Of a stretch of DNA of 64,000 nt, positions 27,703 to 44,436 are shown piece after piece. The stretch comes from Anaerolineales bacterium. Its GTDB lineage: Bacteria > Chloroflexota > Anaerolineae > Anaerolineales > UBA11858. A program made the position numbers and the translations under genes. The notes beneath the pieces were generated by a model, which was given only the letters and a program-made list of their open reading frames with translations, searched no databases and was not told where the DNA came from. Positions within the stretch are counted from its first letter, which is position 1. Each line of letters starts with the position of its first letter. Where the stretch lies: assembly GCA_021108255.1 (NCBI GenBank), contig JAIORG010000072.1, forward strand, positions 95 through 64,094, in the 5' to 3' direction.

Positions 27703-29097
27703 TTAGGCATGAATAGCATTACCCGTCACAGCTTTGGCAGCTTCGTGCAGCACCTCGCTTAGAGTGGGGTGGGCATGAACGTTGTGTCCAATTTCAGCAG
27801 GGGTGAGTTCCATCTGCTGAGCCAGTGTTAATTCAGGCAGCAATTCTGTCACCTCTGGTCCAATCATGTGTGCGCCCAGTATTTCCCCATACTTTTCATC
27901 AACGACAAGTTTAACCCAGCCTCCGTAATCGTTCATCCCTAATGCTTTCCCGTTGGCCTGGAAATTAAATCGGCCTACAGCAACCTCGTATCCAGCATCC
28001 TTGGCTTGTTGCTCGGTTAAACCGAAGGAAGCTACCTGGGGATGGCAGTAAGTTGCCCGGGGCATATTCTGGTATTTGATTTCAGTTGAAGGAACTCCAG
28101 CAATATGTTCGGCGCAGATTACTCCCATTGCCATGCCAACATGAGCCAGCATTAATTTCCCGGTCACATCACCAATAGCCCAGATGCCAGGAACATTGGT
28201 TGCCATAGACTCGTCAATTTCGATAAATCCATTCTTGTCCACCTTTACCCCCGCTTTATCCAAACCTAAATCCTGGCTGTTGGGGACAAAGCTGGTTGCC
28301 AGTAGAACTTGATCGGTAGAGATTTTTTCCTCTCCCTCCGGTGTTTCCACCACCACATTCACTTTTGTCTTAAGTGTTTCAACTTTAGTTACTTTACTCT
28401 TGATCAGGGTGGTTATGCCTTGTTTGTTAATCGCCTTCTGCAGAGCAGCGCTGATTTCTTCATCTTCATTTGGAACAATTCGGTCAATCATTTCTACAAC
28501 AGTCACCGGTACCCCATAGCTGTTCCAAATGGTAGCAAATTCCATCCCAATGGCTCCCGCTCCGACAACCAGGGCGGATTTGGGCAAAGTGTCCTGCAAA
28601 ATAGCTTCCTTATAGGTAACAACCTGTTTACCGTCAATTTCGATGCCTGGGATGATAAAAGGCCTGGCGCCGGTAGCAATGATGATGTTATCCGCCTGAA
28701 GTTCTTCGGGCCCATTTTCACCGCTGATTTGAACTGTGTTTTGGGAGGTAAAAACTGCGTTGCCGGAGAAGAGGGTAACCTTGTTTTTCTTTAATAAATA
28801 TTCCACACCCTTGGTCAGTCGTTTTGAAACCTGGCGGCTGCGTTTAACCGCAGCGCCGTAATCGAGTTTTAGATTATCAAACGAAAAACCAAAATCTTTC
28901 CCCTGGGTGCGGAGAGTATAAGCTACCTCGGCGTTTTTAAGCAGGCTTTTGGAAGGGATGCAGCCGACATTAAGACACACGCCGCCTAAAAATTCCTTCT
29001 CTACTATCGCGACTTTCTGTCCCAGTTGGGCGGCTCGAATAGCAGCCACATACCCTGCAGGACCCGCACCTATAACAATCAAATCAAATTTACTCAT
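27703..29097 (-). CDS. lpdA: Dihydrolipoyl dehydrogenase (E3)
   Basis: GAGPAGY FAD loop, redox disulfide GGVCLNVGCIPSK, NAD loop GAGAIGME, and C-terminal HAHPTLSE. Start set to ATG 29097 (MSKFDLIVIG). Confidence 0.9.
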   Translation of the reverse strand: MSKFDLIVIGAGPAGYVAAIRAAQLGQKVAIVEKEFLGGVCLNVGCIPSKSLLKNAEVAYTLRTQGKDFGFSFDNLKLDYGAAVKRSRQVSKRLTKGVEYLLKKNKVTLFSGNAVFTSQNTVQISGENGPEELQADNIIIATGARPFIIPGIEIDGKQVVTYKEAILQDTLPKSALVVGAGAIGMEFATIWNSYGVPVTVVEMIDRIVPNEDEEISAALQKAINKQGITTLIKSKVTKVETLKTKVNVVVETPEGEEKISTDQVLLATSFVPNSQDLGLDKAGVKVDKNGFIEIDESMATNVPGIWAIGDVTGKLMLAHVGMAMGVICAEHIAGVPSTEIKYQNMPRATYCHPQVASFGLTEQQAKDAGYEVAVGRFNFQANGKALGMNDYGGWVKLVVDEKYGEILGAHMIGPEVTELLPELTLAQQMELTPAEIGHNVHAHPTLSEVLHEAAKAVTGNAIHA

Positions 29098-29125
29098 GAT
29101 TTTCCTCTTCCTGAAATTTTCTAAT

Positions 29126-30118
29126 TTATTCTTCAAAGGGGAATTTATGCCCCCATTGTTCCCGAACTGTATCCAGCGTTTTCATTATGCTCAGGGTTTC
29201 ATCCAGCGGCATAATATCTGATTCGGTTTTCCCCTCTTTAATGCAGCCCATTACTTCCATGGCCTCGTATTCATATCCGTTATATCCATCAATCGGTAAG
29301 GAGATCAGCTCGGGATCTTTTCCTTCCACATGCAGGGTCATTTTAACCGGTTTGTACCAGGGTGAATGGACCACGATTTTACCCTTGCTGCCAAATACAA
29401 TGGCATCTTTGTCGTCGTAGGAGATCTGGGAGGACATCAGGCACACCAATTGGCCCTGGGAGTAACGCAGCACCAGCGAGGTCTGGTAATCTGCACCGCT
29501 CTCCCCAAAACTTGCCAGGCCGGTAACCGCTTCAGGTTCTCCGAACAGGCTGGAAGCCCAGGATACTCCGTAAGAAGCGGTATCCAGCAGGACCCCTGCG
29601 CCGAGGTTAAGATCAAAGAAGCGGTTCTTTAGGTCATAGGCCGGTTTGGCAAGAAAATTGATTGTGATGCCGTTTGTTTTTCCGATCACCCCTTCTTTCA
29701 ACAATTCCCGAATCCGGACGTGGATAGGGAAGAACCTGGTCCACATAGCTTCCATCAGGAATAGATTCTTTTCCCTGGCCAGGTCAACCATGATTTGGGC
29801 TTGTTTGGCGTTGATTGAAAATGCTTTTTCACACAGGACATGCTTCCCCTGGTTAAGACTCATTGTTACGTCGCGCAGGTGATAAACACCCGGGGTGCCG
29901 ATATAGATGATATCAATATCAGGATCAGCGGCTACTTGTTCGTATTCTGTGTACCGGCGGGAAATATTAAATTTATCCCCGAATGCGTCCGCGGTATCTT
30001 GATTCCTGGAACCGACCGCCAGCAGCTCGGCATGTTCAGGGATATTGTTTAACGCTTCAGCGAAACGGGTGGCTATTTTTCCTGTACCCAGGATGCCCCA
30101 TTTTATTTGATCAGACAT
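29126..30118 (-). CDS. Gfo/Idh/MocA-family oxidoreductase
   Basis: GILGTGKIA Rossmann loop and the CEKAF (EKP-type) motif. Start set to ATG 30118 (MSDQIKWGILG) with GGAGA upstream. Confidence 0.85.
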   Translation of the reverse strand: MSDQIKWGILGTGKIATRFAEALNNIPEHAELLAVGSRNQDTADAFGDKFNISRRYTEYEQVAADPDIDIIYIGTPGVYHLRDVTMSLNQGKHVLCEKAFSINAKQAQIMVDLAREKNLFLMEAMWTRFFPIHVRIRELLKEGVIGKTNGITINFLAKPAYDLKNRFFDLNLGAGVLLDTASYGVSWASSLFGEPEAVTGLASFGESGADYQTSLVLRYSQGQLVCLMSSQISYDDKDAIVFGSKGKIVVHSPWYKPVKMTLHVEGKDPELISLPIDGYNGYEYEAMEVMGCIKEGKTESDIMPLDETLSIMKTLDTVREQWGHKFPFEE

Positions 30119-30156
30119 AAGATTCTCCTCACTTTTTAATAATATGAGACAAAAGA

Positions 30157-30579
30157 TCAATCAAAATCAATTCCTTCCTCAGCCCAGACAATCTTTCCTT
30201 CTTTTTCCCTTCTGGCAGGAATGACACAAAGAAACCCCAGGGGTTCCATCCCTGTATTGGTTATCTGATGAAGAATATCGGGAGGGATATGAATGATATC
30301 TCCCCGGCTTATGAGGTGTGTTTCTTCATCAAGCAACACTTCCCCTTGACCCTGCAGGATCAGGACTCCGTGATCGTATGGGTGCTGTTCTTTTCTGGAG
30401 TACCCCTTGGGGCCAACCTCGTAATAGCGGAAGGCAAAGTTCTCGGCGCCTTCTTTTTTGCCAATAATCCAGGTTTCAGAGACCTGGTTTACTTCCTCGT
30501 TCTGGTACATTCGGGAGCGAGCGCCATCCCATTTGAAAATCTGTTTCCAATCGCCGTTAAATTTACGTATCGTTCCCAT
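30157..30579 (-). CDS. Cupin-domain protein
   Basis: Cupin_2 pattern: HPYDHGVLILQGQGEV...GDIIHIPPDILHQITNTG. Confidence 0.7.
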   Translation of the reverse strand: MGTIRKFNGDWKQIFKWDGARSRMYQNEEVNQVSETWIIGKKEGAENFAFRYYEVGPKGYSRKEQHPYDHGVLILQGQGEVLLDEETHLISRGDIIHIPPDILHQITNTGMEPLGFLCVIPARREKEGKIVWAEEGIDFD

Positions 30580-31408
30580 GTTCAGTTCCTTTTGATCTAA
30601 GTGTGGATGCGCCCAGGATAGCTGCGAGGTCAGCTAATGAAATTCTTGAGGTTAGGTCATAACTTAATGGTGTAATGGATACCAATCCTTGAGCCATCGC
30701 ATAAGCATCTGTGTCTTGACTTAGATACTTGCCTTTGCTGGGAGTGTAAGAGATTTTTTCTGGAGCCCCGAATTGCTGGTTACGATTCTGAATTGAAGGA
30801 GTGTAATAAGGCAAACGGTCCTGCCGGGTTACGACACATTTTGTTTCTGTTGAGGCAGAAAGAGGAATTTCCAATTTAAGCACATCGGCATCAAAAGGAA
30901 GGGACTCGTTCAGCATTTTTTCAGCAATTTTACGAGTGAAATACACAGCGGTGGAGAAATCCACATTTTCGCTGTAGCTGTGATAATCAACGCTATCAAT
31001 TTCCTGGGAGACCGCCAAAGTTGGTATTCCTTTTTCTGCAGCTTCAAGCGCAGCCCCTATTGTTCCAGAGACTGTAACACAACTGCCAATATTCTCGCCA
31101 TAGTTTATACCGGAAACTGCCAGGGCGATATTCCGGTCAGATAATTCGAGCCTGGCGTGTACAACAGCCAGGGCTGGGGTTGCCTTTACGCCGAACCCTT
31201 CCCAAGTATGGTTTTCGTATTTAACGATTGTTTTTGTTATTGTCCCGTCCCCACCACAGTTCTGGGTCCGGCTTCTCCCCATGCTGGTTTGTTGTTCGAA
31301 GGGAGCGACTATTAACAAATCTCCCAGTGGGTGAAGCGCTTCAGCGGCAGCAGCCAGCCCGGGAGATTGAATGCCGTCGTCATTAGTGAGCAGGATTAAT
31401 GGTTTCAT
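30563..31408 (-). CDS. surE: 5'/3'-nucleotidase SurE
   Basis: ILLTNDDGIQSPGL N-terminal signature and SGINYGEN are present. Confidence 0.9.
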   Translation of the reverse strand: MKPLILLTNDDGIQSPGLAAAAEALHPLGDLLIVAPFEQQTSMGRSRTQNCGGDGTITKTIVKYENHTWEGFGVKATPALAVVHARLELSDRNIALAVSGINYGENIGSCVTVSGTIGAALEAAEKGIPTLAVSQEIDSVDYHSYSENVDFSTAVYFTRKIAEKMLNESLPFDADVLKLEIPLSASTETKCVVTRQDRLPYYTPSIQNRNQQFGAPEKISYTPSKGKYLSQDTDAYAMAQGLVSITPLSYDLTSRISLADLAAILGASTLRSKGTEHGNDT

Positions 31409-32220
31409 GACTGGTGCACCTCGAGCAGGGCCTGGTGCAATTGGGAGATATCTTCGTAAATAAAGTCCGGTTTAATATCGCTGCGGCTGATTTCCTCCCG
31501 GGAAGTCACCCCGGTGAGGACTGCTGCTGTCCGAATTCCCAGATTAGAAGCTCCCAGGATGTCAGTCTCCAGGCGGTCCCCGACCATGAGGGTATCCTCG
31601 GGCTTTGCGCCGAATTCCTTTAACGCGGTTTGAAAGATTGCCGGGTGCGGCTTGCCGGCCACAAAAGGCTTTACTCCCGAGGCAAATTGAAGTGCGCCGA
31701 TTACCATGCCTGTTCCTGGGTTTATTCCTTCTGGAGTAGGGAAAGAACCATCTGTATTTGTGGCAATGAAGGCGGCGCCGTTCATGATCAACCTCATGGC
31801 GATTTTAATCTTTTGATGATTGATCTGGCGGTCCATTCCCGCCACAACTGCGACTACTTCTTTCCCTGGATTTTCTTCTCCAATGGATAACTGGAAACCG
31901 GCATCTTCCAGGGTTGTTATCAGCCCATCCATGCCAACCACGTGGAGAGGAGCCCCTGGTCCAAATCGTTCAAGCAGGTACTCTGCCGTGGTGGTGGAAC
32001 TGGTAATCACGGAGTTTGAATTGGCGGAGATGCCAAATTTTCCAAGCTTATCTATGTAATCCTGGGCGGTGCGTGTGCTGTTATTTGTTAACAAAGCCCA
32101 GTTGATTCCGTTCCCAACTAAAAACTCAATAAAGGGATTTATTCCTGGAAGTGGATTGTCCGTTATCCACAAGACACCATCTGCATCCAGAAGGATGGTT
32201 TTGAATTTTACCAACTTCAT
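31405..32220 (-). CDS. HAD-IIA family sugar-phosphate phosphatase (NagD-like)
   Basis: LLDADGVLW (DxDG), LTNNSTRT, GKPHP and GDRLETDI are present. It overlaps surE by 4 nt. Confidence 0.85.
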   Translation of the reverse strand: MKLVKFKTILLDADGVLWITDNPLPGINPFIEFLVGNGINWALLTNNSTRTAQDYIDKLGKFGISANSNSVITSSTTTAEYLLERFGPGAPLHVVGMDGLITTLEDAGFQLSIGEENPGKEVVAVVAGMDRQINHQKIKIAMRLIMNGAAFIATNTDGSFPTPEGINPGTGMVIGALQFASGVKPFVAGKPHPAIFQTALKEFGAKPEDTLMVGDRLETDILGASNLGIRTAAVLTGVTSREEISRSDIKPDFIYEDISQLHQALLEVHQS

Positions 32221-32238: not shown

Positions 32239-33200
32239 TTATTTTTCCTTTTGACAACGTTCCTGTGCCAATTCCAGCACTCGGAGAGCTGTGAGGTTGT
32301 CTGTTACCAGGGAGTTTATGAACCTCCCGCAGGTTGCGCCCAAAATAGCTTCCGCTTTTTCAATATTGCCGGCTACGCCCAGGCGAATAGGAATTTCTAG
32401 GATTCCGGGCAGAGAGGTTCCAATCCGCCGTTGATGAAAATCAATCGGGGCAAGGTTCCCCTCAATGTCAAAATATATCGCACAAACATCTCCCACGGCA
32501 TCAGCCGCTCGAATAGTCTTTATATCTTGCAGGGAGATATGATTTTCTTTATATAGGCTGCAGAATTCCGATTTGGTTGTGCCAATTCCCATCAAGGCAA
32601 TATCACATTCTTTTCCAATTGAGACTGCTTTTTCAACAGTTGGATCTTTTAACAAAGAGGCGGCCGTTTTTTCATTCTCAACAATAAATGGCGAGAATAA
32701 ATAAGTCCCCTCCCCGCCGATTTTTTGAGCCATTTGCTCGACCAGAATCTGGGCGCTATATGAATGACGGGTTGATCCCAATACGCCCACCAACTGAACA
32801 ACCGTAGTGTCCTTGATTGGAATAGTTTCAAAGGCCTCAATGGTCGCTTGAACAGTTGTTTGTGTCCGGGCTTAATGAGATTGGCCAATAATCTTGAAGC
32901 GGCTTTGCCGAGCTGCTTCCTGATTTCGTCATAATCTGGCTGATTGCTGAAAACCACTACAGATACATGTTTAAGGTTGAGTGTTTTCTGAAGTTTACTT
33001 TCCAGTTCACGATCATACTGGAAGGGACGGTGGATAATAATCTCTACAATGCTTTTCTCCCGGGCCTCGGTTAACATCCGGGAGACGGCGGATCGGGTTA
33101 AGCCAATCATCTCCGCGATCTCGGTTTGTTTTTTATCCTCTTGATAATATTTCTCGGCTACAAAGGCTAATAGTTCATCACGCTCGTTGTTATTTCCCAT
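32239..33200 (-). pseudogene. SorC/DeoR(Bsu)/CggR-family sugar-binding transcriptional regulator, interrupted by a frameshift near 32858-32871
   Basis: The N-terminal HTH part (MGNNNERDELL...EIAEMIGLTRSAVSRMLTEAREK...LIKPG) is in one frame. The sugar-binding domain (TTVQATIEAFE...VVQLVGVLGS...DIALMGIGT...GDVCAIYFDIEGN) is in another. The two track ORFs (32649-33245 and 32239-32793) overlap, and the joined length of about 320 aa equals the family norm. Confidence 0.8.
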
Positions 33201-33252
33201 GGGGATAACCCTATTAAATTTTATTAGTGGTCGAATATGTGACAAATTTCCA

Positions 33253-33281
33253 TTGACAGATGGCTAACTACCCACTATATT
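33253..33281 (+). promoter_or_regulatory. Near-consensus promoter of the PTS EIIABC unit
   Basis: TTGACA (33253-33258), a 17-nt spacer, then TATATT (33276-33281). Confidence 0.55.
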
Positions 33282-33287
33282 ATATCA
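33279..33287 (-). promoter_or_regulatory. Extended -10 element (TGaTATAAT) pointing at the SorC regulator operon
   Basis: The minus-strand sequence TGATATAAT equals plus-strand 33279-33287. It overlaps the palindrome at 33284-33297. Confidence 0.35.
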
Positions 33288-33318
33288 CATATGTGATTGT
33301 TCACTTCACGTATGTAAG
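33284..33318. promoter_or_regulatory. Bipartite operator candidate, copy 1
   Basis: Perfect palindrome ATCACATATGTGAT (33284-33297) plus degenerate box TTCACGTATGTAAG (33305-33318). Their centres are 21 bp apart. Confidence 0.5.
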
Positions 33319-33551: not shown

Positions 33552-34007
33552 ATGAAAATCAAAGATTATTTATGTGATGATGCGGTGATAATTGGGCTAG
33601 ATGCCAGAGATTCTGAGCAAGTTATTCGTACTTTGGGTGGGAAGCTGCGCAATTTAGGATATGTCAAGGAAAATTTTGTTGAGGCGACTTTGGAGCGGGA
33701 GGCAAATTTGCCAACCGGGTTGCCTTTAGGGGGAGAGTACAACGCAGCCATTCCCCATGTGGACATTGAATATGTTAATCAATCAGCTCTAGGGCTGGCT
33801 ACTCTGAAACAGGATGTTGTGTTTTGTAATATGGTTGAAAACGATGTGGAAGTACCCTGCAGATTGGTGATTATGTTGGCTCTTGATCAACCAAAATCCC
33901 AGATTGAGATGCTGCAAAGCGTAGCAGCTGTGCTGCAGGATCAAGAAATTGTAAAAAAACTGGTTTCAGCTGAAACGGCAGAAGAAGTTTTTTCCATTCT
34001 GTCATAA
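33552..34007 (+). CDS. PTS EIIA component (EIIA-2: mannitol/fructose/galactitol/ascorbate type)
   Basis: PTS_EIIA_2 layout with the phosphorylatable His in AAIPHVD. EIIB and EIIC follow. Confidence 0.85.
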   Translation: MKIKDYLCDDAVIIGLDARDSEQVIRTLGGKLRNLGYVKENFVEATLEREANLPTGLPLGGEYNAAIPHVDIEYVNQSALGLATLKQDVVFCNMVENDVEVPCRLVIMLALDQPKSQIEMLQSVAAVLQDQEIVKKLVSAETAEEVFSILS

Positions 34008-34031: not shown

Positions 34032-34316
34032 ATGGCAAAAACCGTGATCGTGTCTTGTGGAACTGGAATTGCCACTTCAACCGTAGCGGCAATAGCGATT
34101 GAAGAGGCCTGCAAGGAGGCTGGAATTGATGTCGTCACCAAGCAATGCAAAGGGCAAGAGATCCCTGAATTGCTGAAACAGGGAGCAGATTTGATTGTTA
34201 CCACCTCCGTTATGCGCTTTGATCCCGGGATCCCGGTGGTGAAAGGGCTGGCGTTTTTGACCGGAGTGGGCAAAGACGCGATTGTACAAGAGATTCTAGA
34301 TCACCTGAGAGAGTAG
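34032..34316 (+). CDS. PTS EIIB component (GatB/UlaB type)
   Basis: KTVIVSCGTGIATS with the active-site Cys near the N-terminus, and about 94 aa long. Confidence 0.85.
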   Translation: MAKTVIVSCGTGIATSTVAAIAIEEACKEAGIDVVTKQCKGQEIPELLKQGADLIVTTSVMRFDPGIPVVKGLAFLTGVGKDAIVQEILDHLRE

Positions 34317-34491
34317 TAACCAGAATTTGCTTTTAGTGTTCTTACTGGTACTGGTAAATCCAGCCAATAACTGATTTCAGGGAGATTGTGAGTTCTCTGC
34401 AAGTCTTCAAGGAGGTGATAAGTATTCCAAACAATCAGTAAAGTTAAGTAACGCACCACGTATTTTTTATTATTCTTTGGAGGATAAAAAA

Positions 34492-35886
34492 ATGGATTTC
34501 CTTACCATACTGAAGTCATTTGTTGACACCATGGGTGCCACAGTGCTTCTGCCCGTCTTCATTTTTATTTTTGCCCTTATCCTGGGCGCGAAAGCCGGTC
34601 GTGCTTTCCGGGCTGCTGTGACCATCGGTGTTGCTTTCATTGGTATTAACCTGGTAATCGGGTTGATGTGGGGTGCACTTTCCGGTGTGTCTCAGGCCCT
34701 TGTTACCAATGTAGGCATTGAACGCGATATCATTGACGTGGGATGGCCGGCAGCGGCAGCTGTGGCCTTTGCCACCGATGTTGGCTTGTGGGTAATTCCC
34801 GTTGGCTTGATCGTAAACTTTGCTCTCTTGATTCCTGGTGTAACCAAAACTCTTAACGTGGATATCTGGAACTTCTGGCACTATGCTTTGATTGGTTCCC
34901 TGGTAACCTACGCTTCTGGAAGTCTTCCCATGGGTTTGGCTGCCGCTGCTGTCGCTGCTGCCTTTATGCTCTTCCTGGGTGACTGGACTGCTAAAGGCAT
35001 TCAGGAATTTTATGACCTACCCGGCATCTCCATTCCTCACGGTATGACTGCCCCTATGGTTCCCCTGGCACTTCCTTTCAACTGGCTGTTTGACCGCATT
35101 CCTGGTCTGCGCGACGTGGATGCCGATCCGGATGGAATTGAAAAGAGCCTGGGTTCAACCTTCGGCGATCCGATGGTTATGGGGTTGGTAATTGGCTTGA
35201 TTCTTGGACTGATTGCCTACTTTGGTGAATTTGCCGGTGCCTTTATTCCCACCCTGGGGAAAATCATTGTGCTCGGTTTTGAGCTGGCCGCCGTTATGGT
35301 CCTGCTGCCCCGCATGGTCCGCATTTTGATGGAAGGACTTATCCCGGTTTCTGAAGCCGCCCGCGACTTCATGTCCAAGCGCGCTTCTGATCGCGAAGTT
35401 TACATCGGTCTGGATTCTGCAGTTCTGGTTGGACATCCTTCTGCGATTTCAACTGGTCTGCTTTTGGTACCGATTGCGATCTTGCTCTCCATCATTCTGC
35501 CTGGCAACCGCATGCTGCTCTTTGCTGACCTGGCAGTGCTGCCCTTCCTCTGTGCTCAGATTGCACCGATGGCAAAGGGTAACATCGTCCGGATGGTCTT
35601 TGTTGGAACCATTTTGTTGATCTTTGGTTTCTACTTCGCCAACGCTTTAGCCCCGGCCATTACCGCTATTGCTGGCGGAGCTGGGTTCGCCATCCCCGAA
35701 AATGCTGTACTGATTTCCAGTATTGCTGATGGATTTGTATGGTCACCGCTTGCCTTCATGCTCCTGGGTAAATACCTGGGTTGGATCGGCATTGGCCTGT
35801 TTGCGATCCTCACAGCCGCTCTGTTCTACTTCTACAAAAAGAACGAAGCTGCCTGGGACAAACTTGCTGGCGCAAGTGGAGAGTAA
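34492..35886 (+). CDS. gatC: PTS EIIC component, galactitol (GatC) family
   Basis: The N-terminus MDFLTILKSFVDTMGATVLLPVFIFIFALILGAKAGRAFRAA...IGINLVIGLM aligns by eye to E. coli GatC. GGAGG lies upstream of ATG 34492. Confidence 0.9.
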   Translation: MDFLTILKSFVDTMGATVLLPVFIFIFALILGAKAGRAFRAAVTIGVAFIGINLVIGLMWGALSGVSQALVTNVGIERDIIDVGWPAAAAVAFATDVGLWVIPVGLIVNFALLIPGVTKTLNVDIWNFWHYALIGSLVTYASGSLPMGLAAAAVAAAFMLFLGDWTAKGIQEFYDLPGISIPHGMTAPMVPLALPFNWLFDRIPGLRDVDADPDGIEKSLGSTFGDPMVMGLVIGLILGLIAYFGEFAGAFIPTLGKIIVLGFELAAVMVLLPRMVRILMEGLIPVSEAARDFMSKRASDREVYIGLDSAVLVGHPSAISTGLLLVPIAILLSIILPGNRMLLFADLAVLPFLCAQIAPMAKGNIVRMVFVGTILLIFGFYFANALAPAITAIAGGAGFAIPENAVLISSIADGFVWSPLAFMLLGKYLGWIGIGLFAILTAALFYFYKKNEAAWDKLAGASGE

Positions 35887-35957: not shown

Positions 35958-35977
35958 GCTCTTGGAGGAAAATAAGC

Positions 35978-36667: not shown

Positions 36668-36668
36668 T

Positions 36669-36703
36669 AGCACATACGTGAACACACAAATCACATATGT
36701 GAT
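36669..36703. promoter_or_regulatory. Bipartite operator candidate, copy 2 (inverted as a unit)
   Basis: AGCACATACGTGAA (36669-36682, reverse complement TTCACGTATGTGCT) plus ATCACATATGTGAT (36690-36703). Their centres are 21 bp apart, and the second box ends 12 nt before the ATG. Confidence 0.5.
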
Positions 36704-36714
36704 ATTGGTACTCA

Positions 36715-37593
36715 ATGAAAAAAACCTGGATCAGCACCCTTGACTCTATCCCGGTTGGCCTGTACGAAAAAGCCCTGCCAAAAAACCTCACCTGGGAAGA
36801 ACGTTTAATTCTAACCAGGCAGACCGGCTTTGATTTTTTGGAAATCTCCATTGATGATACCGATGAGCGTATCACGCGTTTAGATTGGACCAAAAAAGTG
36901 AAACAGGATATTAAGAACACTATGGAGCGGACCGGGGTGAAGATCCAATCATTAAGCCTCAGCGCTCATCGCCGATATCCCCTGGGAAGCAAATCTGCTG
37001 AAACTCGCTCAAATGCATTGGATGCTTTTAAGAAGGCAGTTGACCTGGCGGTTGAATTGGGCATTCGGACTATCTTGATTGGCGGCGCAGATAATTACTA
37101 TGGGGAAAGCGACCAGGAGTCTCAGGATTGGTTCTTAACCAACCTGGGAAAAGGCTTCGAATGGGCCAGCGGGGCGGGTGTAATGCTGGCATTAGAAAAC
37201 TGGGATATCCAGATAGACACTTTATCAAAAGCAATGGAGTATGTCCGTTATTTTAATTCTCCCTGGTTCCAGGTTTATGCAGATTTTGGGAACTTGATTT
37301 TTGCCGGAGTGGATGTGGTTTCCCAGTTAGAGGAAGTAAAGGGGCATATTGCAGCCCTCCATATTAAAGACACCCTTCCCGGGCAGCTGCGGTATGTGAC
37401 CCCAGGAGAGGGAGAAGTACCATTTGTGGATGCATTTACAAAATTAGCCCAGATCGGTTTCCAGGCGCCAGTGGTTTTAGAACTCTGGACTGAAGAATTT
37501 CCTGACGCGGTTGAAATCGTTGAGGAAGCTGGAAAATTCATTAGAGCCCGGATGAAAGATGGTTGGAGTAGATTCCAAGCCGGGCAACCATAA
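36715..37593 (+). CDS. ulaE: L-ribulose-5-phosphate 3-epimerase / L-xylulose-5-P 3-epimerase (UlaE/SgbU-like)
   Basis: Collinear by eye with E. coli UlaE: P(V/L)G(L/I)YEKALP, GFDF(L/V)E(I/M)S(I/V)D(D/E)TDER(I/L)(T/S)RLDW, LSAHRR(Y/F)PLGS, NPWFQ(V/L)Y.D.GNL. Confidence 0.85.
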   Translation: MKKTWISTLDSIPVGLYEKALPKNLTWEERLILTRQTGFDFLEISIDDTDERITRLDWTKKVKQDIKNTMERTGVKIQSLSLSAHRRYPLGSKSAETRSNALDAFKKAVDLAVELGIRTILIGGADNYYGESDQESQDWFLTNLGKGFEWASGAGVMLALENWDIQIDTLSKAMEYVRYFNSPWFQVYADFGNLIFAGVDVVSQLEEVKGHIAALHIKDTLPGQLRYVTPGEGEVPFVDAFTKLAQIGFQAPVVLELWTEEFPDAVEIVEEAGKFIRARMKDGWSRFQAGQP

Positions 37594-37614: not shown

Positions 37615-38265
37615 ATGACTGACAAACCCTACCTTCAATTAGCTTTAGATTATTTTGATTTGGCACCGGCCCTGGCAATGGCGCAAATTGTTCACAGGGA
37701 AGTTGATATTATCGAGATTGGCACTCCGTTAACCAAAGCCGCGGGTATGCTGGCGGTAAAAACAATCCGGGAGATGTGTCCTGATAATTTGATCCTGGCT
37801 GATATCAAATCTCCTGATGTTGGTGGGGGGGAAGCAAAGATGGCTTTTGACGCAGGAGCTGACTGGATGACAGTCTTAGGCGCTGCACCCCTGGATACAG
37901 TCAAGCTTGCTTTAGAGGAAGCCAACTCCCGACCAGGTAAGGAAATGTTCATCGAACTTACAGGTATTCGAGATATCATTACTCGAGCCAGGGACTGGCG
38001 TGGTATCGGGGTTGAGCGTATGGTTTATCACAGGGGATGGGATGAAGGCAATCTTTCCCGCTCCTGGGATGCCCAAGACAAAGATACAATCCAGGAATTG
38101 ATCCAGATGGGATTTGAAATTTCAGTCGCTGGCGGTCTGGGACTTGATATGATTCCATTTTTCGAAGGATTAGATATTTCCGTTTTTATTATCGGCAGAG
38201 CAATCCGGGAAACTCCTGATCCTGCTGCAACCGCCCGGAAATTCCAGGAAGCGATTAATAAATAG
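37615..38265 (+). CDS. ulaD: 3-keto-L-gulonate-6-phosphate decarboxylase-like (UlaD/SgbH; OMPDC suprafamily)
   Basis: LQLALD, VDIIEIGTPL, LADIK, IELTG, VYHRGWD, GGL, and FIIGRAIR all match UlaD. These motifs fit UlaD better than hexulose-6-P synthase. Confidence 0.8.
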   Translation: MTDKPYLQLALDYFDLAPALAMAQIVHREVDIIEIGTPLTKAAGMLAVKTIREMCPDNLILADIKSPDVGGGEAKMAFDAGADWMTVLGAAPLDTVKLALEEANSRPGKEMFIELTGIRDIITRARDWRGIGVERMVYHRGWDEGNLSRSWDAQDKDTIQELIQMGFEISVAGGLGLDMIPFFEGLDISVFIIGRAIRETPDPAATARKFQEAINK

Positions 38266-38295: not shown

Positions 38296-39261
38296 ATGAC
38301 TTTAACGAAGGAAAAGGCAGAGCAGTATCTATTGCAAATGTATCAAATCCGTGCCTTTGAAGAGCAGGCTGAAAAGAGCTATATGGCAGGCAAAATTCAC
38401 GGTACGATGCACCTTTCAATAGGGCAGGAGGCATCCGCAGTCGGTTCCATCAGCACACTGGAACCAACTGATTTCATTATTGGTCATCACCGGGGACATG
38501 GTCTTTGTATTGCCAAGGGAGCAGATCTCAATTTGATGATGGCTGAATTTTATGGCAAGGAAAATGGATACTGCCGGGGGCGGGGTGGATCCATGCATAT
38601 TGCTGATGTGGACGGCGGTAACCTGGGAGCGAATGGTGTTGTCGGCGGAGGCATCCCGCTGGCTGTAGGAGTTGGTATTGGTTTGAAAATGCAGGCGGAA
38701 AACAAAGTGCTGCTGGCATTTTTTGGTGATGGGGCGGCATCAACCGGTGCCTTCCACGAGTCGATGATTCTGGCAGTGCTATACCAGGTGCCTGTTGTTT
38801 TCATTTGCGAGAACAACCAGTACGCCATGTCTTTTTCAGCAAATGATTGGACAACAAGTAAAAAAATTGCGGCCCACGGAGAAATCTACGGCATGCCCGG
38901 AAGCACATCAACTGACGGAAATGACCTTCTGGAGGTTCAGAAGGCAGTCGAAGCAGCAGTTAAACGAGCGCGTGAAGGGGGAGGACCCTCTTTAATTGTA
39001 AATGATACCTACCGCTGGCGGGGACATTCCAAGAGCGATCGAAATCGTTATCGAACAAAAGAAGAAATTGAGAAATGGAAGAAGAAGGATCCGATTCTAA
39101 GATTCCAGAAGCAATGTATCGGTGAAAAATTGCTGTCGGAAAAAGAAGCTGAAAAAATTAAGGATCAGGGCTATGCTGATATCGAGTCAGCCCGCCTGTT
39201 TGCTGAAGCCAGTCCTGAACCTGACGTCGCAGCACTTGAAGAAGGGGTATACGCGCCATGA
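38296..39261 (+). CDS. TPP-dependent 2-oxo/acetoin dehydrogenase E1 alpha subunit
   Basis: [23 protein letters not shown], and the TPP motif GDGA(X)n NN are present. Confidence 0.9.
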
Positions 39262-40244
39262 GAGAGATCACATACTTAGAAGCTGTACGCGAAGCAATGA
39301 CACAGGAAATGGAGCGTGATTCCCGCGTTTTCCTGATAGGAGAAGACGTTGGTGAATACGGCGGAGCTTTTCAGGTATCCTACGGTATGCTGGAAAAGTT
39401 CGGCCCCGAACGTATCCTGGATACCCCCATTACTGAGTTGGGTTTAACTGGTGCGGCAACTGGAGCTGCCTTGATCGGCATGCGCCCTATTGCGGAAATC
39501 ATGTTCATGGATTTCACTACCCTGGCATCAGAGCAGCTGGTAAACCAGGCTGCTAAATTGCGCTTTATGTTTGGAGGGAACGCTACCGTGCCGTTGGTGT
39601 TGAGGACACCAGCAGGATCCGGAACCGGGGCAGCTGAACATCATTCCCAAAGTTTCGAAAATTGGTTTGTTCATGTTCCGGGATTAAAGGTAGTTATGCC
39701 CACTACGCCTTATGATGCTAAAGGGCTGTTAATTGCGTCCATCCGGGATGATAACCCGGTGGTTTTCATAGAACATAAACTGCTCTATAAAACTAAAGGT
39801 GATGTACCGGAAGAGCTTTATGAGATTCCGCTGGGGAAGGCGGATATTAAAAGGGAAGGAAAGGATCTTACAATTATTGCCACCTCGATCATGGTGCAAC
39901 GCTCTTTGCAGGCTGCAGAAGAGTTGGCTAAAGACGGCATAGACGTTGAGATCGTTGATCCCCGCACGCTGCGCCCCCTGGATACCGAAACTATCGTCAA
40001 TTCTGTCAAGAAAACCGGTAAGGTTCTAATTGTCCATGAAGCGGTTAAAACGGGCGGATTCGGCGGCGAACTCGCCGGCGTGATCGCCGAAAGTGAAGCG
40101 TTTGGCTATTTGGACGCGCCGATCCTGCGTTTGGCGGGACGGGAAGTTCCCATTCCATATAATCGTAATCTTGAACTTAAAGCAGTTCCTCAGGTTGAAG
40201 ATATTATCCAGAAAGCCAGGGAACTGGTAAATTTAAGGGTGTAA
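39258..40244 (+). CDS. 2-oxo/acetoin dehydrogenase E1 beta subunit
   Basis: [19 protein letters not shown], and the HSQS motif are present. ATGA overlap with E1 alpha. Confidence 0.9.
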
Positions 40245-40245
40245 T

Positions 40246-41571
40246 ATGGCAATTGAAATGATCATGCCCAAAGTGGACATGGACCAGGAAACCGGGACAG
40301 TGGTTGAATGGCTGAAAGGTAACGGTCAGCAGGTTGAGGAAGGTGAAACAATCCTGGTGATGGAAACAGACAAAATTGCCATTGATGTTGAAGCGCCGGG
40401 AACAGGGATACTGGATGGTATCTCCGCTAATCCGGGCGACGTTGTTCCTATTGGAACGGTGATAGCTTACATCCTGGCAGAAGGGGAAGATCTACCAAAG
40501 AAACCAATTGAATCAAAAGAACCTGTTCTGGAAATCCCAGAATCATCTGTTCCCGCCGAAATAGAGATATCGGCTACACCAGTTGCCAGAAATATGGCAG
40601 CAGTTCATGGTGTTAATCTGGCTGTTGTGGACTCAACTGGTACTGGCGGGAAAGTCACCAAAGCGGATGTTCAGGCAGTTGTCTCCCGGGCAGCCAAACC
40701 GGTTGATCCCCGGGAAATTTATGCAACACCAGCAGCGAGAAGAACTGCCAGAATTGAGGCCGTGAACATGGGATTAGTTCGGGGCAGTGGGCCGGGAAGT
40801 CGGATCCAGGTAGCTGATGTAAAAGGCTACCTGACCAGTAAAACCCAGGCTGATTTTGCAGCAAGCCCTCAGATACAAGCAGGGGAAGTTATTCCATTAA
40901 TTGGCATGCGCCGCACTATTGCAGAGCGATTAACGGCAAGTTACCAATCTATACCGCATATCCAATTTACTGTTCGTGTTGATATGACTAATTTCTTCAA
41001 AGCGCGGAACGACTACAATGAATTAGCCCTTAAGCGCGGAGATGACAAGGTGTCTGTTACTGCTGTGCTGGTAAAATTAGTGTCAATGGTTTTAACAGAT
41101 CATCCCTGGGTAAATAGTTCGCTCATTGATGACAAAATCATCCTTCATAAGGACATTAACATTGGCGTTGCGGTAGCCCTGGAAAAAGGATTAATTGTTC
41201 CCGTGGTCAAAAACGCAGATCAAAAAGGAATCAGTTTGATCGCCTTTGAAACCAATGATCTCATTACCCGGGCCAGAGAAGAAAATCTGAACAGCGCGGA
41301 CGTCAAAGACGGAACATTTACGATAACCAATCTTGGACCATTTGGTGTAGAGCAGTTTAATGCCATCATCAATCCTCCGGAAGCAGGTATCCTGGCGGTG
41401 GGATCCACAACATCTGAAGTTGTGGCTTTACCAGATGGCACGATTGCTACCAGGCCGATAATGCGGCTGACATTGTCTGCGGATCACAGAATTGTTGATG
41501 GTGCTGTTGCGGCTAGATTTATTGGTGATTTGAAGACCACTTTAGAGAATCCAATCTTGATGAATTATTAA
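40246..41571 (+). CDS. Dihydrolipoamide acyltransferase E2 (one lipoyl domain, two PSBD-like segments, catalytic domain)
   Basis: Lipoyl-lysine motif METDKIA, two ATP.AR...GV/M..V.G(T/S)G..G.(V/I)...DV segments, and catalytic DHR..DG. Confidence 0.9.
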   Translation: MAIEMIMPKVDMDQETGTVVEWLKGNGQQVEEGETILVMETDKIAIDVEAPGTGILDGISANPGDVVPIGTVIAYILAEGEDLPKKPIESKEPVLEIPESSVPAEIEISATPVARNMAAVHGVNLAVVDSTGTGGKVTKADVQAVVSRAAKPVDPREIYATPAARRTARIEAVNMGLVRGSGPGSRIQVADVKGYLTSKTQADFAASPQIQAGEVIPLIGMRRTIAERLTASYQSIPHIQFTVRVDMTNFFKARNDYNELALKRGDDKVSVTAVLVKLVSMVLTDHPWVNSSLIDDKIILHKDINIGVAVALEKGLIVPVVKNADQKGISLIAFETNDLITRAREENLNSADVKDGTFTITNLGPFGVEQFNAIINPPEAGILAVGSTTSEVVALPDGTIATRPIMRLTLSADHRIVDGAVAARFIGDLKTTLENPILMNY

Positions 41572-41583
41572 TTAGGAGAACTA

Positions 41584-41853
41584 ATGCTGGAAATCACTGT
41601 AATTATTATTCACGAAGTAGGGCTTCATGCCCGGCCTGCGTCCCTGTTTGTGCAGACAGCCGCAAAATATTCAAGTGATATTGAAGTCACTCATGGCGAA
41701 ATTACAACCAATGCAAAAAGTATCCTGGGTGTTCTCACCCTTGGCGCTCATAAAGGCGCGGAAATAAACATCAAAGCTGAGGGCGAAGACGCCGAAGAGG
41801 CGCTGAAAGCTTTGGAACAGCTTGTGTTGAATAATTTTGGAGAGGATGAATGA
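41584..41853 (+). CDS. ptsH: Phosphocarrier protein HPr
   Basis: GLHARPA (His-15 equivalent) and NAKSILGVLTLG (Ser-46 equivalent) are present, and the protein is 89 aa long. Confidence 0.9.
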   Translation: MLEITVIIIHEVGLHARPASLFVQTAAKYSSDIEVTHGEITTNAKSILGVLTLGAHKGAEINIKAEGEDAEEALKALEQLVLNNFGEDE

Positions 41854-43577
41854 AAAGCATTTCAGGCATTCCTGCTTCCTATGGCATTGCAATCGGCTCG
41901 GCTTTTGTGTTTGACCGTGCCGAGATAGTCATTGAGACTTATTCGATAAAAGATCCGGCTGCAGAGTGGAAACGGTTTGAAGAAGCCCGGGAAAAAACCC
42001 ACCATCAACTTGATGAAGCCTATCAGAAAACAAAAGACGATTGCGGTGAAGAAGCAGCCGAAATTTTTAATGCCCAGAAATTAATGCTTGAGGATCCTGA
42101 ATTAATCAATACGGTAAAAAACCAGGTTGAAAAAGACCTCACCAATATTGAATCGGCTTTATATAAAACAGCTGAAAGTTATGCCCAACAGCTAGAAGCT
42201 ATCAATGATGAATATCTGAGCGCACGGGCGCTGGATATCCGGGATGTTTCATCTCGCTGTTTGAGAAATCTATTGGGCACAACCGATTCGCCTGCTGCCG
42301 CATTAAAGATACCCTCGATCATCGTAGCAAGGGATCTCACTCCCTCTGATACAGTTCTGCTTGACAAGGATTTTGTTTTGGGGTTTTGCACCGCTGAAGG
42401 TGGATCAACTTCCCATACGGCAATATTGGCCAGAGGACTTGGCCTTCCTGCGGTCGTGGGAGTAGGAACCGCTATTGAAGACATTCAGAATGGCGAAGAG
42501 TTGGTTTTAGACGGTGACGCGGGGGTAATAGTTATCAATCCCGATCAGGGCGCGCTGGAAGAATTTAGCAGTAGACAGGAAAAGTTTTATAAGCTCCAGG
42601 CCGAGGCTGAAGCAATCACCCATCAACCCGCAGTGACAACTGATGGTCATCAGGTGGAAATTGTTGCCAATATTGGGAATGTAGAAGGTGTGCAAACAGC
42701 TCTCGATGCTGGAGCCGAGGGTGTGGGCTTGTTGCGCTCTGAATTCTTGTATCTGGAGAGATCCAGTTTGCCGTCAGAAGAAGAACAGTACCAGAATTAC
42801 AAAACGATCGCCGATGCCTTTGGAGATAAACCGGTTATCCTGCGTTCGCTGGATGTGGGGGGAGACAAGGATATTCCGTATATCGATATGCCTGCGGAAA
42901 CTAACCCCTTCCTGGGAGTTAGAGCAATCCGTCTTTGTTTGTCACGTCCTGAGTTGTTTAAGCCGCAATTAAGGGCGGCATTAAGAGCGGGATATGGGAA
43001 TAATCTGAAATTGATGTTCCCTATGGTTGCAACTGTAGATGATGTGCTCAAAACCCGGGAGGTACTGGAAGAGTGCCGGGGTGAGTTAAAAAACGAAGGC
43101 TTTGATGTTGCTGATGAGATGGATATCGGTATTATGATCGAGATTCCCTCCGCTGCGATTATGGCTGATCAATTATCTGAAGTTGTGGATTTCTTTTCAA
43201 TTGGAACCAATGATCTCAGCCAATATACTTTAGCAGCGGACCGAACCAATGCCCAGGTTGCTCAAATCGCATCCGGTTTCCAACCCGCCGTCTTCCGCTT
43301 GATCAAAGGGGTGATTGACGCAGCGCATTCAAATGGAAAATGGGTTGGATTGTGTGGTGAGATGGCTGGTGAGCTGTTGGCCATTCCTATTCTACTGGGA
43401 TTAGGGCTGGATGAGTTCAGCATGAATCCTCCTGCCATTCCCTTTGCAAAACAGCTAATTCGCTCGATATCTTTTAAGCACGCTCAACAGGTTGCTCAAA
43501 CAGCGCTAGACCTAAGAAGCGACACCGAAATTCGGGAATATATCCAGAAAGTGATCCCGGAAGTAAATATAGGGTAA
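41850..43577 (+). CDS. ptsI: Phosphoenolpyruvate-protein phosphotransferase (Enzyme I)
   Basis: GGSTSHTAILARGLGLPAVVG (active His), LRSEFL, GTNDL.QY, and C-terminal CGEMAG are present. ATGA overlap with ptsH. Confidence 0.95.
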   Translation: MKSISGIPASYGIAIGSAFVFDRAEIVIETYSIKDPAAEWKRFEEAREKTHHQLDEAYQKTKDDCGEEAAEIFNAQKLMLEDPELINTVKNQVEKDLTNIESALYKTAESYAQQLEAINDEYLSARALDIRDVSSRCLRNLLGTTDSPAAALKIPSIIVARDLTPSDTVLLDKDFVLGFCTAEGGSTSHTAILARGLGLPAVVGVGTAIEDIQNGEELVLDGDAGVIVINPDQGALEEFSSRQEKFYKLQAEAEAITHQPAVTTDGHQVEIVANIGNVEGVQTALDAGAEGVGLLRSEFLYLERSSLPSEEEQYQNYKTIADAFGDKPVILRSLDVGGDKDIPYIDMPAETNPFLGVRAIRLCLSRPELFKPQLRAALRAGYGNNLKLMFPMVATVDDVLKTREVLEECRGELKNEGFDVADEMDIGIMIEIPSAAIMADQLSEVVDFFSIGTNDLSQYTLAADRTNAQVAQIASGFQPAVFRLIKGVIDAAHSNGKWVGLCGEMAGELLAIPILLGLGLDEFSMNPPAIPFAKQLIRSISFKHAQQVAQTALDLRSDTEIREYIQKVIPEVNIG

Positions 43578-43584
43578 AAATCCC

Positions 43585-44436
43585 ATGCGAACATTTCCCG
43601 AATGCTACGGATGTCTCCTGCGGCAGGCTGTATCTGCCATGAATTACGGCGGGGTAGACCAGAGGACCCAAATCGATACTATAAAAGAAGTACTGCATAC
43701 CCTGGAGAAAGCCGATGATTCGCTTACTCCATCTAACCATGCCGGTCAAACGAATCGGGTAATAAGAGAGAGGGTTGGGATCGATGATCTTTACCATGAA
43801 ATTAAACAGGAAAGCCACATCTTGGCCGAGGGATATTTGGAGGATTTGATAGATTTATCAAATGGAGGCAGCGACAAACTCGAGCAAGGGCTAAAGATAA
43901 GCGCGGCGGGCAATATTATTGATGTTGTTCACGTAAATGATTATGACCTCTGGAAAGAAGTAATTACTACTGTAAACCAGGAGCTGCAGGGCGGGGGAGT
44001 AGAAGCTTTCCGGCAAAGAATCGCCGAATCGCCCTATTTGTTATATCTGGCGGACAACGTGGGAGAAACTATATTCGATCGGGTATTTATTGAAACTCTG
44101 GACATTCCCGTGATCTATGCAGTCAAAGGTGGCCCAATTCTAAATGATGCCACCCTGGAAGATGCTCTGGCAGCTGGAATTGATCAGCTAGCAGAGATAG
44201 TAGAGACAGGGTCCCGATCACCGGGCACTATTCTTAATCAATGTTCGGAGGAATTCCAGCAGCTTTTTGAGAAATCAAACCTGGTCTTATCCAAAGGACA
44301 GGCAAATTATGAAACGCTGGACGACAAGGGGGATAAAATATTTTTCTTGTTACGGGTAAAGTGCCCCGTTCTGAGCAGGGAGATTAATTCACCTCTTGAT
44401 ACACTGGTGCTGAAGCAGGGAGCCTCTCTGAAGTAA
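43585..44436 (+). CDS. DUF89-family metal-dependent (sugar-)phosphatase
   Basis: FPECYGCLLRQA N-terminus, LADNVGETIFD and SKGQANYETL motifs. It starts 7 nt after ptsI. Confidence 0.8.
   Translation: MRTFPECYGCLLRQAVSAMNYGGVDQRTQIDTIKEVLHTLEKADDSLTPSNHAGQTNRVIRERVGIDDLYHEIKQESHILAEGYLEDLIDLSNGGSDKLEQGLKISAAGNIIDVVHVNDYDLWKEVITTVNQELQGGGVEAFRQRIAESPYLLYLADNVGETIFDRVFIETLDIPVIYAVKGGPILNDATLEDALAAGIDQLAEIVETGSRSPGTILNQCSEEFQQLFEKSNLVLSKGQANYETLDDKGDKIFFLLRVKCPVLSREINSPLDTLVLKQGASLK

Follow-up and report, generated by a model that had tools for sequence, protein, structure and literature searches.

A SorC-linked island of an Anaerolineales genome joins a sugar phosphotransferase system to a pyruvate dehydrogenase-like complex with a possible role as a catabolic exit step

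According to the textbooks, lipoamide-dependent E1/E2/E3 complexes act on 2-oxoacids and acetoin. Which substrate, then, does such a complex handle when its genes share an island with a complete sugar phosphotransferase system (PTS)? This question was raised by a 64-kb stretch of DNA from an uncultured Anaerolineales bacterium (Chloroflexota; contig JAIORG010000072.1), in the following called the window, in which a Gat-type PTS, UlaE- and UlaD-like enzymes, an E1/E2 pair and a DUF89 protein lie on the plus strand and the matching E3 closes a divergent operon on the minus strand. The window was analyzed by open reading frame (ORF) listing, by profile searches with Pfam and NCBIfam and by tblastn, and all genes named in an initial annotation, made from the letters alone, were found in their places. 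Relatives of the complex travel with sugar-uptake genes in three phyla, and it probably serves a dedicated, undescribed step of sugar breakdown. The interpretation that we favor, tentatively and at slightly less than an even chance, is a SorC-controlled catabolic island for a polyol or keto-sugar, in which E1/E2/E3 would be the dedicated exit step and would cleave a phosphorylated alpha-hydroxy-ketone.

The complex, its operator and its feeder genes

The genes of E1alpha (38296-39261), E1beta (39258-40244) and E2 (40246-41571) follow each other on the plus strand, and dihydrolipoyl dehydrogenase (Lpd, E3) is encoded by the final gene of the minus-strand operon (27703-29136; TIGR01350 565 bits, cut-off 409; Pfam Pyr_redox_2 and Pyr_redox_dim). 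As the initial annotation had pointed out, the complex is split over both operons, with Lpd completing E1/E2. The E2 protein has a single lipoyl domain, in which the lipoyl Lys is present, plus two E3-binding segments and, with DHRIVDG at residue 413, a catalytic domain (PF00364, PF02817 in two stretches, PF00198). The equivalog scores were mixed. E1alpha (PF00676) reached 341 bits with TIGR03182, below the cut-off of 394, and 201 bits with human PDHA1, and E2 reached 312 bits, below the cut-off of 445 for the E2 of pyruvate dehydrogenase (PDH). E1beta passed NF006667, a PDH model at subfamily level, with 423 bits (cut-off 321), and Lpd was above its cut-off as well. A tblastn search of the window gave no second E1/E2/Lpd, nor a class II aldolase of the AraD/UlaF type, an oxidoreductase of the DXR-II family or a transketolase.

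In human E1, the entrance of the active site is lined by a loop, which reads RGHSKSDR in E1alpha of the window. The form [R/K]GHS[K/R]SD, in most cases with a further Arg or Lys after the Asp, was present in 80 of 80 related loci and in the plasmid proteins described below, and may be a signature for this E1alpha family. The same loop is HGHSMSDP in human PDHA1 (His263 and Ser264 by PDB alignment) and YGHFEGDE in an aco-type protein of Enterococcus. The extra positive charge in the loop of this E1alpha family would suit an anionic or phosphorylated substrate.

A shared operator ties the complex to the PTS. At both plus-strand promoters, the -10 box is closely followed by the 14-bp palindrome ATCACATATGTGAT in exact form, and a second element, the half-site TTCACGTATGT, is common to the two. 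At the PTS promoter (33253-33315; TTGACA-17-TATATT), the palindrome occupies 33284-33297 and the half-site 33305-33315. The other promoter region (36639-36703) contains TTGACA-17-TATAAT at 36639-36667, rightly called a consensus promoter before, as it matches 12 of 12 consensus positions, with the half-site at 36672-36682 on the minus strand and the palindrome at 36690-36703. Neither element has a further copy anywhere in the 64 kb. A motif scan of 1.23 Mb of related loci with up to two mismatches gave 31 matches, most of them in promoter regions of these operons, namely in the SorC-EIIA interval, upstream of UlaE and, in L029, L015 and L018, directly upstream of E1alpha. This shared placement argues that the PTS genes, the operon from UlaE to DUF89 and, in relatives, the E1 genes are under one repressor. 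With the operator at both promoters and the SorC sugar-binding domain encoded alongside, the adjacent SorC protein is the obvious candidate for binding ATCACATATGTGAT. The earlier view of two operons acting as one unit thus gains from the common operator and from an architecture that recurs in relatives. At the plasmid loci, the operator of the Chloroflexota is not conserved, and the regulators there are only 26-30% identical.

SorC-family regulators typically respond to phosphorylated sugars. The gene in the window (32239-33200, minus strand, ATG start at 33200) is broken into two ORFs (32649-33245 and 32239-32793), and PF04198 matches both fragments. It had been described as frameshifted; the cause is a 19-bp deletion at approximately 32859, as seen by comparison with the contig L001, in which SorC is intact with 326 aa and which shares 99.7% identity with the window over 16.7 kb. 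The deletion is flanked by TTGT microhomology, and the break is a strain-level change or an assembly artifact. If the deletion is real, the island would be constitutively expressed. A dead, pseudogenized locus was rejected, as the other 17 genes are intact and so is the regulator in L001.

The PTS genes start with EIIA (33552-34007, plus strand; EIIA_2 type, PF00359), in which the phosphorylatable His lies in AIPHV, followed by an EIIB of the Gat/Lac type (34032-34316, plus strand; PF02302; NF007643 69 bits, below the cut-off of 95) with its Cys in VSCGTG. The EIIC (34477-35886, plus strand) belongs to the Gat family (PF03611, 276 bits), and since its 428 bits with TIGR00827 remain below the cut-off of 542, it is Gat-like and not an assigned galactitol transporter. 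HPr (41584-41853; TIGR01003 100 bits, cut-off 48) and Enzyme I (EI, 41850-43577; TIGR01417 627 bits, cut-off 342) are encoded on the plus strand directly after E2. The EIIA His, the EIIB Cys and His15 and Ser46 of HPr are all present, and the phosphorelay looks functional. From the UlaE-like gene to DUF89, the genes are as tightly packed as had been noticed initially, with gaps of 21, 30, -4, 1, 12, -4 and 7 nt. The classical gat operon has the Gat-type EIIA, EIIB and EIIC in common with the window, which differs by its own EI and HPr and by an EIIC below the TIGR00827 cut-off. GatY/GatZ aldolase and GatD, listed as missing by the initial annotation, were likewise not among the locus proteins in profile searches.

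The first gene after the second promoter (36715-37593, plus strand) encodes a UlaE-type ketopentose-5-phosphate 3-epimerase. The label was upheld by both UlaE-type NCBIfam models (TIGR00542 277 bits, cut-off 272; NF009689 292 bits, cut-off 200) and by 241 bits with the E. coli UlaE structure 3cqh. For the neighboring UlaD-like protein (37615-38265, plus strand), the family held, that of 3-keto-L-gulonate-6-phosphate decarboxylase (KGPDC, the UlaD activity) and 3-hexulose-6-phosphate synthase (HPS), but a canonical KGPDC it is not (197 and 190 bits against cut-offs of 250 and 294), and it stays below the KGPDC and HPS cut-offs. Mapped on the E. coli UlaD structure 1kv8, it has Trp for Arg139 and Ala for Thr169 and keeps the metal-binding and enediolate set Asp11, Glu33, Asp62, Lys64, Asp67, Glu112, His136 and Arg192; Trp139 is invariant in 15 Chloroflexota orthologues. 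Work of the Gerlt laboratory is said to show that positions 112, 139 and 169 tune decarboxylase versus hexulose-phosphate-synthase activity. As the Arg139/Thr169 of a true KGPDC are missing from this subgroup, 3-keto-L-gulonate-6-phosphate is no safe assumption for its substrate. Homologues in a large protein collection were of Chloroflexota type and came in a 216-aa and a 354-aa form.

The E. coli Ula/Sga and Sgb systems likewise combine a UlaE-type 3-epimerase, an adjoining KGPDC-family enzyme and a PTS of the related EIIC superfamily. The window, however, adds E1/E2/E3, and its UlaD-like protein differs at positions 139 and 169. UlaG, UlaF/SgbE/AraD and a SgaT-type EIIC, which the initial annotation had listed as absent, are indeed not encoded in the window, where the sole nearby metallo-beta-lactamase-fold protein is a beta-CASP RNase. 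That annotation had also known of no pathway with this gene set, and literature searches combining microcompartment with PDH, DUF89 with PTS, DXR-II with sorbitol PTS and deoxyxylulose with acetoin dehydrogenase, or asking for methylerythritol catabolism, found none.

Relatives in Chloroflexota and on plasmids

A scan of one genome per GTDB species with E1alpha yielded 80 loci, all of Chloroflexota type, in which genes within 10 kb of E1alpha were counted. A SorC regulator was found in 45 of the 80 loci, any PTS component in 32, DXR-II in 13, UlaD plus UlaE in 12 and any sugar-related gene in 64. The architecture of the window recurs in full in four of them (L009, L010, L017 and L021), and the truncated contig L011 has the same gene order up to an E1alpha of 89% identity. 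This contig (CAXMRF010000017.1) is labelled as a metagenome-assembled genome of Nitrosomonadaceae, yet its locus is of the Anaerolineales type, and a binning error is probable. Minimal operons were encountered at 53-55% identity, with the order SorC-E1alpha-E1beta-E2-IIA-IIB-IIC-HPr-EI in L086 and E1alpha-E1beta-E2-IIA-IIB-IIC in Thermanaerothrix daxensis (L069). The sugar linkage of the complex holds down to 53% identity.

The genes that would feed the complex differ between close relatives. L029, with an E1alpha of 92% identity, keeps SorC, HAD, cupin, E1/E2, EI, DUF89 and Lpd, while a glucitol (Gut)-type PTS and DXR-II (a 432-aa oxidoreductase) replace the Gat-PTS, UlaE and UlaD. In L016 (E1alpha 77% identical), both feeder sets, DXR-II included, surround a single E1/E2. 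The same E1/E2 with different feeders in these two loci marks UlaD/UlaE as an interchangeable feeder and not as an obligatory partner. HAD-IIA is encoded directly upstream of E1alpha in L018 and L026, and SurE directly between SorC/HAD and E1alpha in L024; from this position between SorC and E1alpha, both phosphatases belong to the core module. Two paralogous E1alpha-beta/E2 clusters (L023 and L025), 24 kb apart, were found on the 2.9-Mb contig CAWEDV010000001.1, one with SorC, HPr and EI and the other with UlaE, UlaD and shell genes.

Six loci (L012, L014, L019 and L023-L025; for example L014:4402-9363) combine E1alpha-beta/E2 in one cluster with a long UlaD-like gene, a true PanB (PF02548, 321 bits) and shell genes of bacterial microcompartments (BMC; PF00936), possibly a type of microcompartment locus that has not been described. 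The sugar-phosphate-utilization (SPU) type of microcompartment is defined by DeoC, RpiB and an aldehyde dehydrogenase, not by E1/E2 (Sutter et al., PMC8217296), and was ruled out as an explanation by these different defining enzymes. The long UlaD-like form of 354-363 aa (L012:1189-2253, L025:7423-8493, L023:7460-8551) is confined to the shell-gene loci and has at its C-terminus some 140 additional conserved aa, among them a Cys motif (..WGVSEMGL.LTVDGRDCPGC..RFC..). The window itself contains neither BMC shell genes (PF00936) nor PanB nor a formaldehyde-handling gene.

Outside the Chloroflexota, a translated search of plasmids with E1alpha gave 735 records, and the following neighborhood figures refer to the best 35 (51-58% identity), which came from Rhizobium, Sinorhizobium, Aminobacter, Shinella, Agrobacterium, Paracoccus, Priestia and others. 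Their complexes adjoin SorC regulators and a PTS with EI, or an ABC transporter and a sugar kinase, and some have their own lpdA and lipA. On the Rhizobium rhododendri plasmid, GutM, Gut-PTS IIC/IIB/IIA, EI, a SorC-type regulator, an NAD(P)H oxidoreductase (DXR-II), E1alpha, E1beta and E2 lie in this order, with DXR-II and E1alpha only 2 nt apart. The Priestia plasmid carries a Gut-PTS with HPr divergent from pdhA-E1beta-E2-lpdA-SorC, S. meliloti pRM41A an ABC transporter, sugar kinase, SorC, DXR-II oxidoreductase, E1alpha, E1beta, E2, lpdA and lipA, and the Pseudoroseomonas plasmid a Gut-type PTS and a second PTS (IIC, IIA, IIB) directly after E2. The Rhizobiaceae and Priestia hosts have chromosomal PDH genes, which makes the plasmid complexes accessory. 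Since the pRM41A version comes without a PTS, disposal of PTS-derived pyruvate is not the general rationale for such loci.

A comparison of coordinates placed DXR-II in the same locus for 33 of these best 35 plasmid E1alpha matches, directly upstream of E1alpha in 32 and approximately 8 kb away in Priestia. The partner oxidoreductase matches the Brucella DXR-like enzyme DRL (3upl, 3upy) with 312-357 bits and keeps Thr229 and Arg320, both critical for DXR-II function (PMC3847144). DXR-II is found mostly in bacteria whose pathway via MEP (2-C-methyl-D-erythritol 4-phosphate) is complete, with or without the canonical DXR-I (PMC3847144), a distribution that would allow for a role outside biosynthesis. 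A glucitol-type PTS imports 2-C-methyl-D-erythritol in Salmonella, according to Testa et al. 2004 as cited in PMC3994034. The position of DXR-II beside E1alpha suggests a catabolic role for this enzyme, from methylerythritol to DXP (1-deoxy-D-xylulose-5-phosphate), a role for which the literature searches gave no description.

DXR-II-family genes were also seen in SorC-GutM-Gut-PTS operons without E1/E2 in Listeria monocytogenes (L096) and Ligilactobacillus salivarius (L097), the latter with fsa and tkt in addition, so DXR-II and the Gut-PTS form a module of their own. The plasmid DXR-II/E1/E2 modules resemble the window in the E1alpha family, the RGHSKSD loop, SorC, HAD phosphatases, a PTS of their own that includes EI or HPr and, in some cases, lpdA. 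The window, however, has a Gat-type PTS, UlaE/UlaD-like enzymes, Gfo and cupin instead of DXR-II and a Gut-type PTS.

The only experimentally studied SorC-regulated member that was found is CD0035-39 of C. difficile, whose "aco" E1alpha is 46.9% identical to that of the window. It gave no growth on acetoin, the acetoin level was unchanged in an acoA mutant, and its promoter was repressed by acetoin and by pyruvate (bioRxiv 10.1101/2023.07.28.551048). In L094, the equivalent of CD0035-CD0043, the genes of a SorC-type regulator and acoABCL precede those of a sigma-54 regulator and PTS IIA/IIB/IIC, and the complex is thus paired with a PTS in this cultured pathogen, too. An Enterococcus cluster with a sigma-54 AcoR-type regulator stands at 46.4% E1alpha identity, below the 52-58% of the SorC- and DXR-II-linked proteins.

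The initial annotation had named a housekeeping PDH, with no conserved linkage to PTS genes in relatives, as the finding that would overturn its proposal. The Chloroflexota show a conserved linkage of E1/E2 to SorC and PTS genes, and the nearest homologues outside lie on accessory plasmids beside sugar-uptake genes, which makes it unlikely from the gene neighborhoods that E1/E2 are merely housekeeping PDH.

The proposed exit step and its alternatives

From the gene set, the shared operator, the linkage and the association with SorC, PTS and DXR-II, we infer the following steps, including the substrate, their order, the cleavage chemistry and the role of the phosphatases. A private phosphorelay of EI, HPr, EIIA, EIIB and the Gat-family EIIC would import and phosphorylate the substrate. 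The Gfo dehydrogenase, the non-canonical KGPDC/HPS enzyme, the UlaE-type 3-epimerase and possibly the cupin would convert it to a phosphorylated alpha-hydroxy-ketone; the initial annotation had speculated on the order of Gfo oxidation, UlaD decarboxylation, UlaE epimerization and E1/E2 cleavage. E1alpha-beta/E2/Lpd would then split the bond adjacent to the carbonyl, as acetoin dehydrogenase does, and pass the acyl group via lipoamide to CoA, with an aldose phosphate released into central metabolism; HAD-IIA, SurE and DUF89 may act as overflow valves for sugar phosphates. A similar reaction has reportedly been described for the transketolase-E2 pair QncN/QncL (Peng and colleagues, PNAS, 2012), where an enzyme dependent on thiamine pyrophosphate is said to take a two-carbon unit from a ketose phosphate and to transfer it via lipoyl to a thioester. 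This is a precedent by analogy only, from a system that is biosynthetic and loads an acyl carrier protein.

The most economical candidate substrate would be a 1-deoxy-2-ketose phosphate such as DXP, giving acetyl-CoA and glyceraldehyde-3-phosphate. DXP is a methyl ketone with an adjacent carbinol and therefore chemically an analogue of acetoin. At the DXR-II loci, a PTS or kinase would turn methylerythritol into MEP, DXR-II running in reverse would make DXP from it, and the acetoin dehydrogenase-like complex would convert DXP to acetyl-CoA and glyceraldehyde-3-phosphate. The cleavage of L-xylulose-5-phosphate or L-ribulose-5-phosphate by E1/E2, as proposed initially, was ranked low because the products, L-glyceraldehyde-3-phosphate and glycolyl-CoA, are unattractive. 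Taken further, the whole GHS[K/R]SD family might be a 1-deoxy-ketose-phosphate dehydrogenase (DXP + CoA + NAD+ to acetyl-CoA + glyceraldehyde-3-phosphate + NADH) that closes the catabolism of 2-C-methyl-D-erythritol, 1-deoxy-xylulose or related methyl-branched or deoxy polyols. Uptake would proceed by a Gut- or Gat-type PTS or an ABC transporter, many DXR-II enzymes would be primarily catabolic, and the window would be a variant in which another substrate reaches this complex by way of the KGPDC/HPS enzyme and the UlaE-type epimerase. In this general form the proposal is speculative, and we regard it as rather unlikely.

Several observations weigh against a dedicated exit step for a phosphorylated alpha-hydroxy-ketone. 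The window has no DXR-II by tblastn, and its E1alpha is only about 54% identical to the DXR-II-linked plasmid proteins, so its function may have diverged. There is no simple chemistry leading from a UlaD/UlaE-type product to DXP, and for the canonical products of UlaD/UlaE a 4-epimerase, possibly located in another part of the genome, would suffice. The broken repressor would be costly for this strain if DXP is drained by the complex. Further, E1beta passes the PDH-E1beta subfamily model, the best solved relatives are true PDH E1 proteins, and within the Chloroflexota the complex adjoins very diverse sugar modules, as would also be expected of PDH as a hub enzyme; in 16 of the 80 related loci, no sugar genes are nearby.

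Some of these observations lend weight to a genuine PDH under a SorC regulator that senses sugar phosphates, comparable to CggR and the glycolytic genes in Bacillus. E1/E2/Lpd would then oxidize pyruvate from the PTS and glycolysis, and UlaD/UlaE would lead to L-ribulose-5-phosphate and, by a 4-epimerase encoded elsewhere, into the pentose phosphate pathway. In keeping with this, human PDH is the closest solved E1alpha, Lpd is a canonical E3, the domain set is that of the alpha2beta2 E1 type of PDH complex, HPr and EI directly follow E2, and UlaE exceeds its equivalog cut-off, next to the E1beta score and the varied or absent sugar modules just mentioned. However, E1alpha and E2 fall below the PDH cut-offs, the active-site loop is unlike that of PDH, the genes are co-regulated with a PTS, and one genome carries two paralogous clusters. 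Rhizobiaceae and Priestia hold accessory plasmid copies, some of which come with ABC transport and a kinase and thus with no PTS-derived pyruvate, DXR-II is coupled to E1alpha in 33 of the best 35 plasmid matches, and pyruvate represses the C. difficile relative instead of inducing it. We consider such a co-regulated PDH unlikely, although an alternative to be taken seriously.

Very unlikely, in our estimation, is a true dehydrogenase of acetoin (or diacetyl/2,3-butanediol) that recovers overflow acetoin from sugar fermentation and shares only its regulator and neighborhood with sugar uptake. AcoABCL likewise comprises E1alpha-beta of the heterotetramer type together with a lipoyl E2 and an E3, and the cleavage next to a carbonyl with transfer of the acyl group to CoA is what we propose for the window. 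Some database annotations name close homologues acetoin:DCPIP oxidoreductase, PGAP labels the E2 of some plasmid clusters as acetoin dehydrogenase E2, and the Enterococcus cluster with the AcoR-type regulator is related at about 46% identity. The window, however, has SorC in place of the sigma-54 activator AcoR, none of which was found among the locus proteins by profile searches, its genes are embedded in sugar-uptake operons, and its loop reads GHSKSD versus the aco-type GHFEGD. The C. difficile SorC-linked system showed neither acetoin consumption nor induction by it, and the coupling to DXR-II and PTS would be left unexplained. Similarly improbable is a UlaD-like lyase of HPS type that splits formaldehyde off a 3-keto-sugar phosphate, with E1/E2 oxidizing a downstream 2-oxoacid and, in the microcompartment relatives, PanB adding formaldehyde to a 2-oxoacid; the window would be the shell-less version. 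It would account for the invariant Trp in place of Arg139, for Ala169, which also occurs in KGPDC variants engineered towards HPS activity, for the clusters of long UlaD-like gene, BMC shell, true PanB and E1/E2 in the six loci given above, and for a SIS (PHI-like) gene in L025. Yet the window lacks shell genes, PanB and a formaldehyde-handling gene, Glu112 and His136 are KGPDC-like, and the chemistry would be conjecture throughout.

If the dedicated exit step for a phosphorylated alpha-hydroxy-ketone is correct, E1/E2/E3 acting on a PTS-derived sugar phosphate would be a new exit route from sugar and polyol catabolism and would account for the extra "pyruvate dehydrogenase" annotated within sugar loci of hundreds of genomes. 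A DXP-like substrate would in addition explain the spread of DXR-II in bacteria that already have DXR-I, and would show how methylerythritol-type compounds of plants and microbes get consumed. Metabolic reconstructions of Anaerolineae should not count these E1/E2 genes as housekeeping PDH. Members of the family are present in hosts that are cultured and tractable (S. meliloti Rm41, Rhizobium, Priestia, C. difficile and Thermanaerothrix daxensis), which makes the question directly testable.

Accessory genes and flanks of the island

Between lpd and the regulator, the minus-strand operon encodes four further proteins. A Gfo/Idh/MocA oxidoreductase (29126-30160; PF01408, PF22725) reaches no NCBIfam equivalog; its best solved relative is the dimeric dihydrodiol dehydrogenase 2o48 (167 bits), and it resembles dihydrodiol and D-xylose dehydrogenases, although the solved-structure matches gave no specific function. 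The small cupin_2 protein (30157-30579; PF07883) is a neighbor of E1alpha in 18 of the 80 loci, and its relatives with solved structures are all uncharacterized cupins, which gave no specific function either. The SurE-family phosphatase (30563-31408; PF01975; TIGR00087 146.6 bits, cut-off 135) is followed by the HAD-IIA protein (31405-32220), which resembles sugar-phosphate phosphatases (TIGR01460 147 bits, cut-off 100) and has its best named match, below the cut-off, in NF053752, a 2-phosphoglycolate phosphatase family. A HAD-IIA paralogue (34% identical) lies 11 kb downstream of the island at 55622-56413. The third phosphatase, of the DUF89/ARMT1 type, ends the plus-strand operon (43585-44436; PF01937 175 bits; NF040824 171 bits, below the equivalog cut-off of 440).

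A strong terminator-like hairpin with a 14-bp stem and a T run (35917-35949, plus strand) separates EIIC from a conserved membrane protein of 157 aa (35978-36451, plus strand, within the ORF 35939-36451). This single-pass protein has no match in Pfam or NCBIfam, probably starts at ATG 35978, as called in L001, and recurs after EIIC in nine related loci. Another terminator-like hairpin follows lpd on the minus strand (27639-27611). An Rfam scan found no riboswitch or antiterminator in the whole window, and a DeoC/LacD-family aldolase query had no tblastn match in it.

The island is flanked by the housekeeping genes of Tex, DegV, the beta-CASP RNase and RNase D. A recent horizontal insertion was rejected, as the GC content of the island equals that of its flanks and the downstream neighbors are syntenic in relatives. 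Just beyond the island, a second Gfo/Idh/MocA gene (26341-27525) is convergent with lpd. The stretch from 20001 to 24000 stands out by a GC content of 0.51-0.56, compared with 0.44-0.49 elsewhere in the window, and includes genes of a class III aminotransferase and, at 21163-22863, of the aldehyde:ferredoxin oxidoreductase family.

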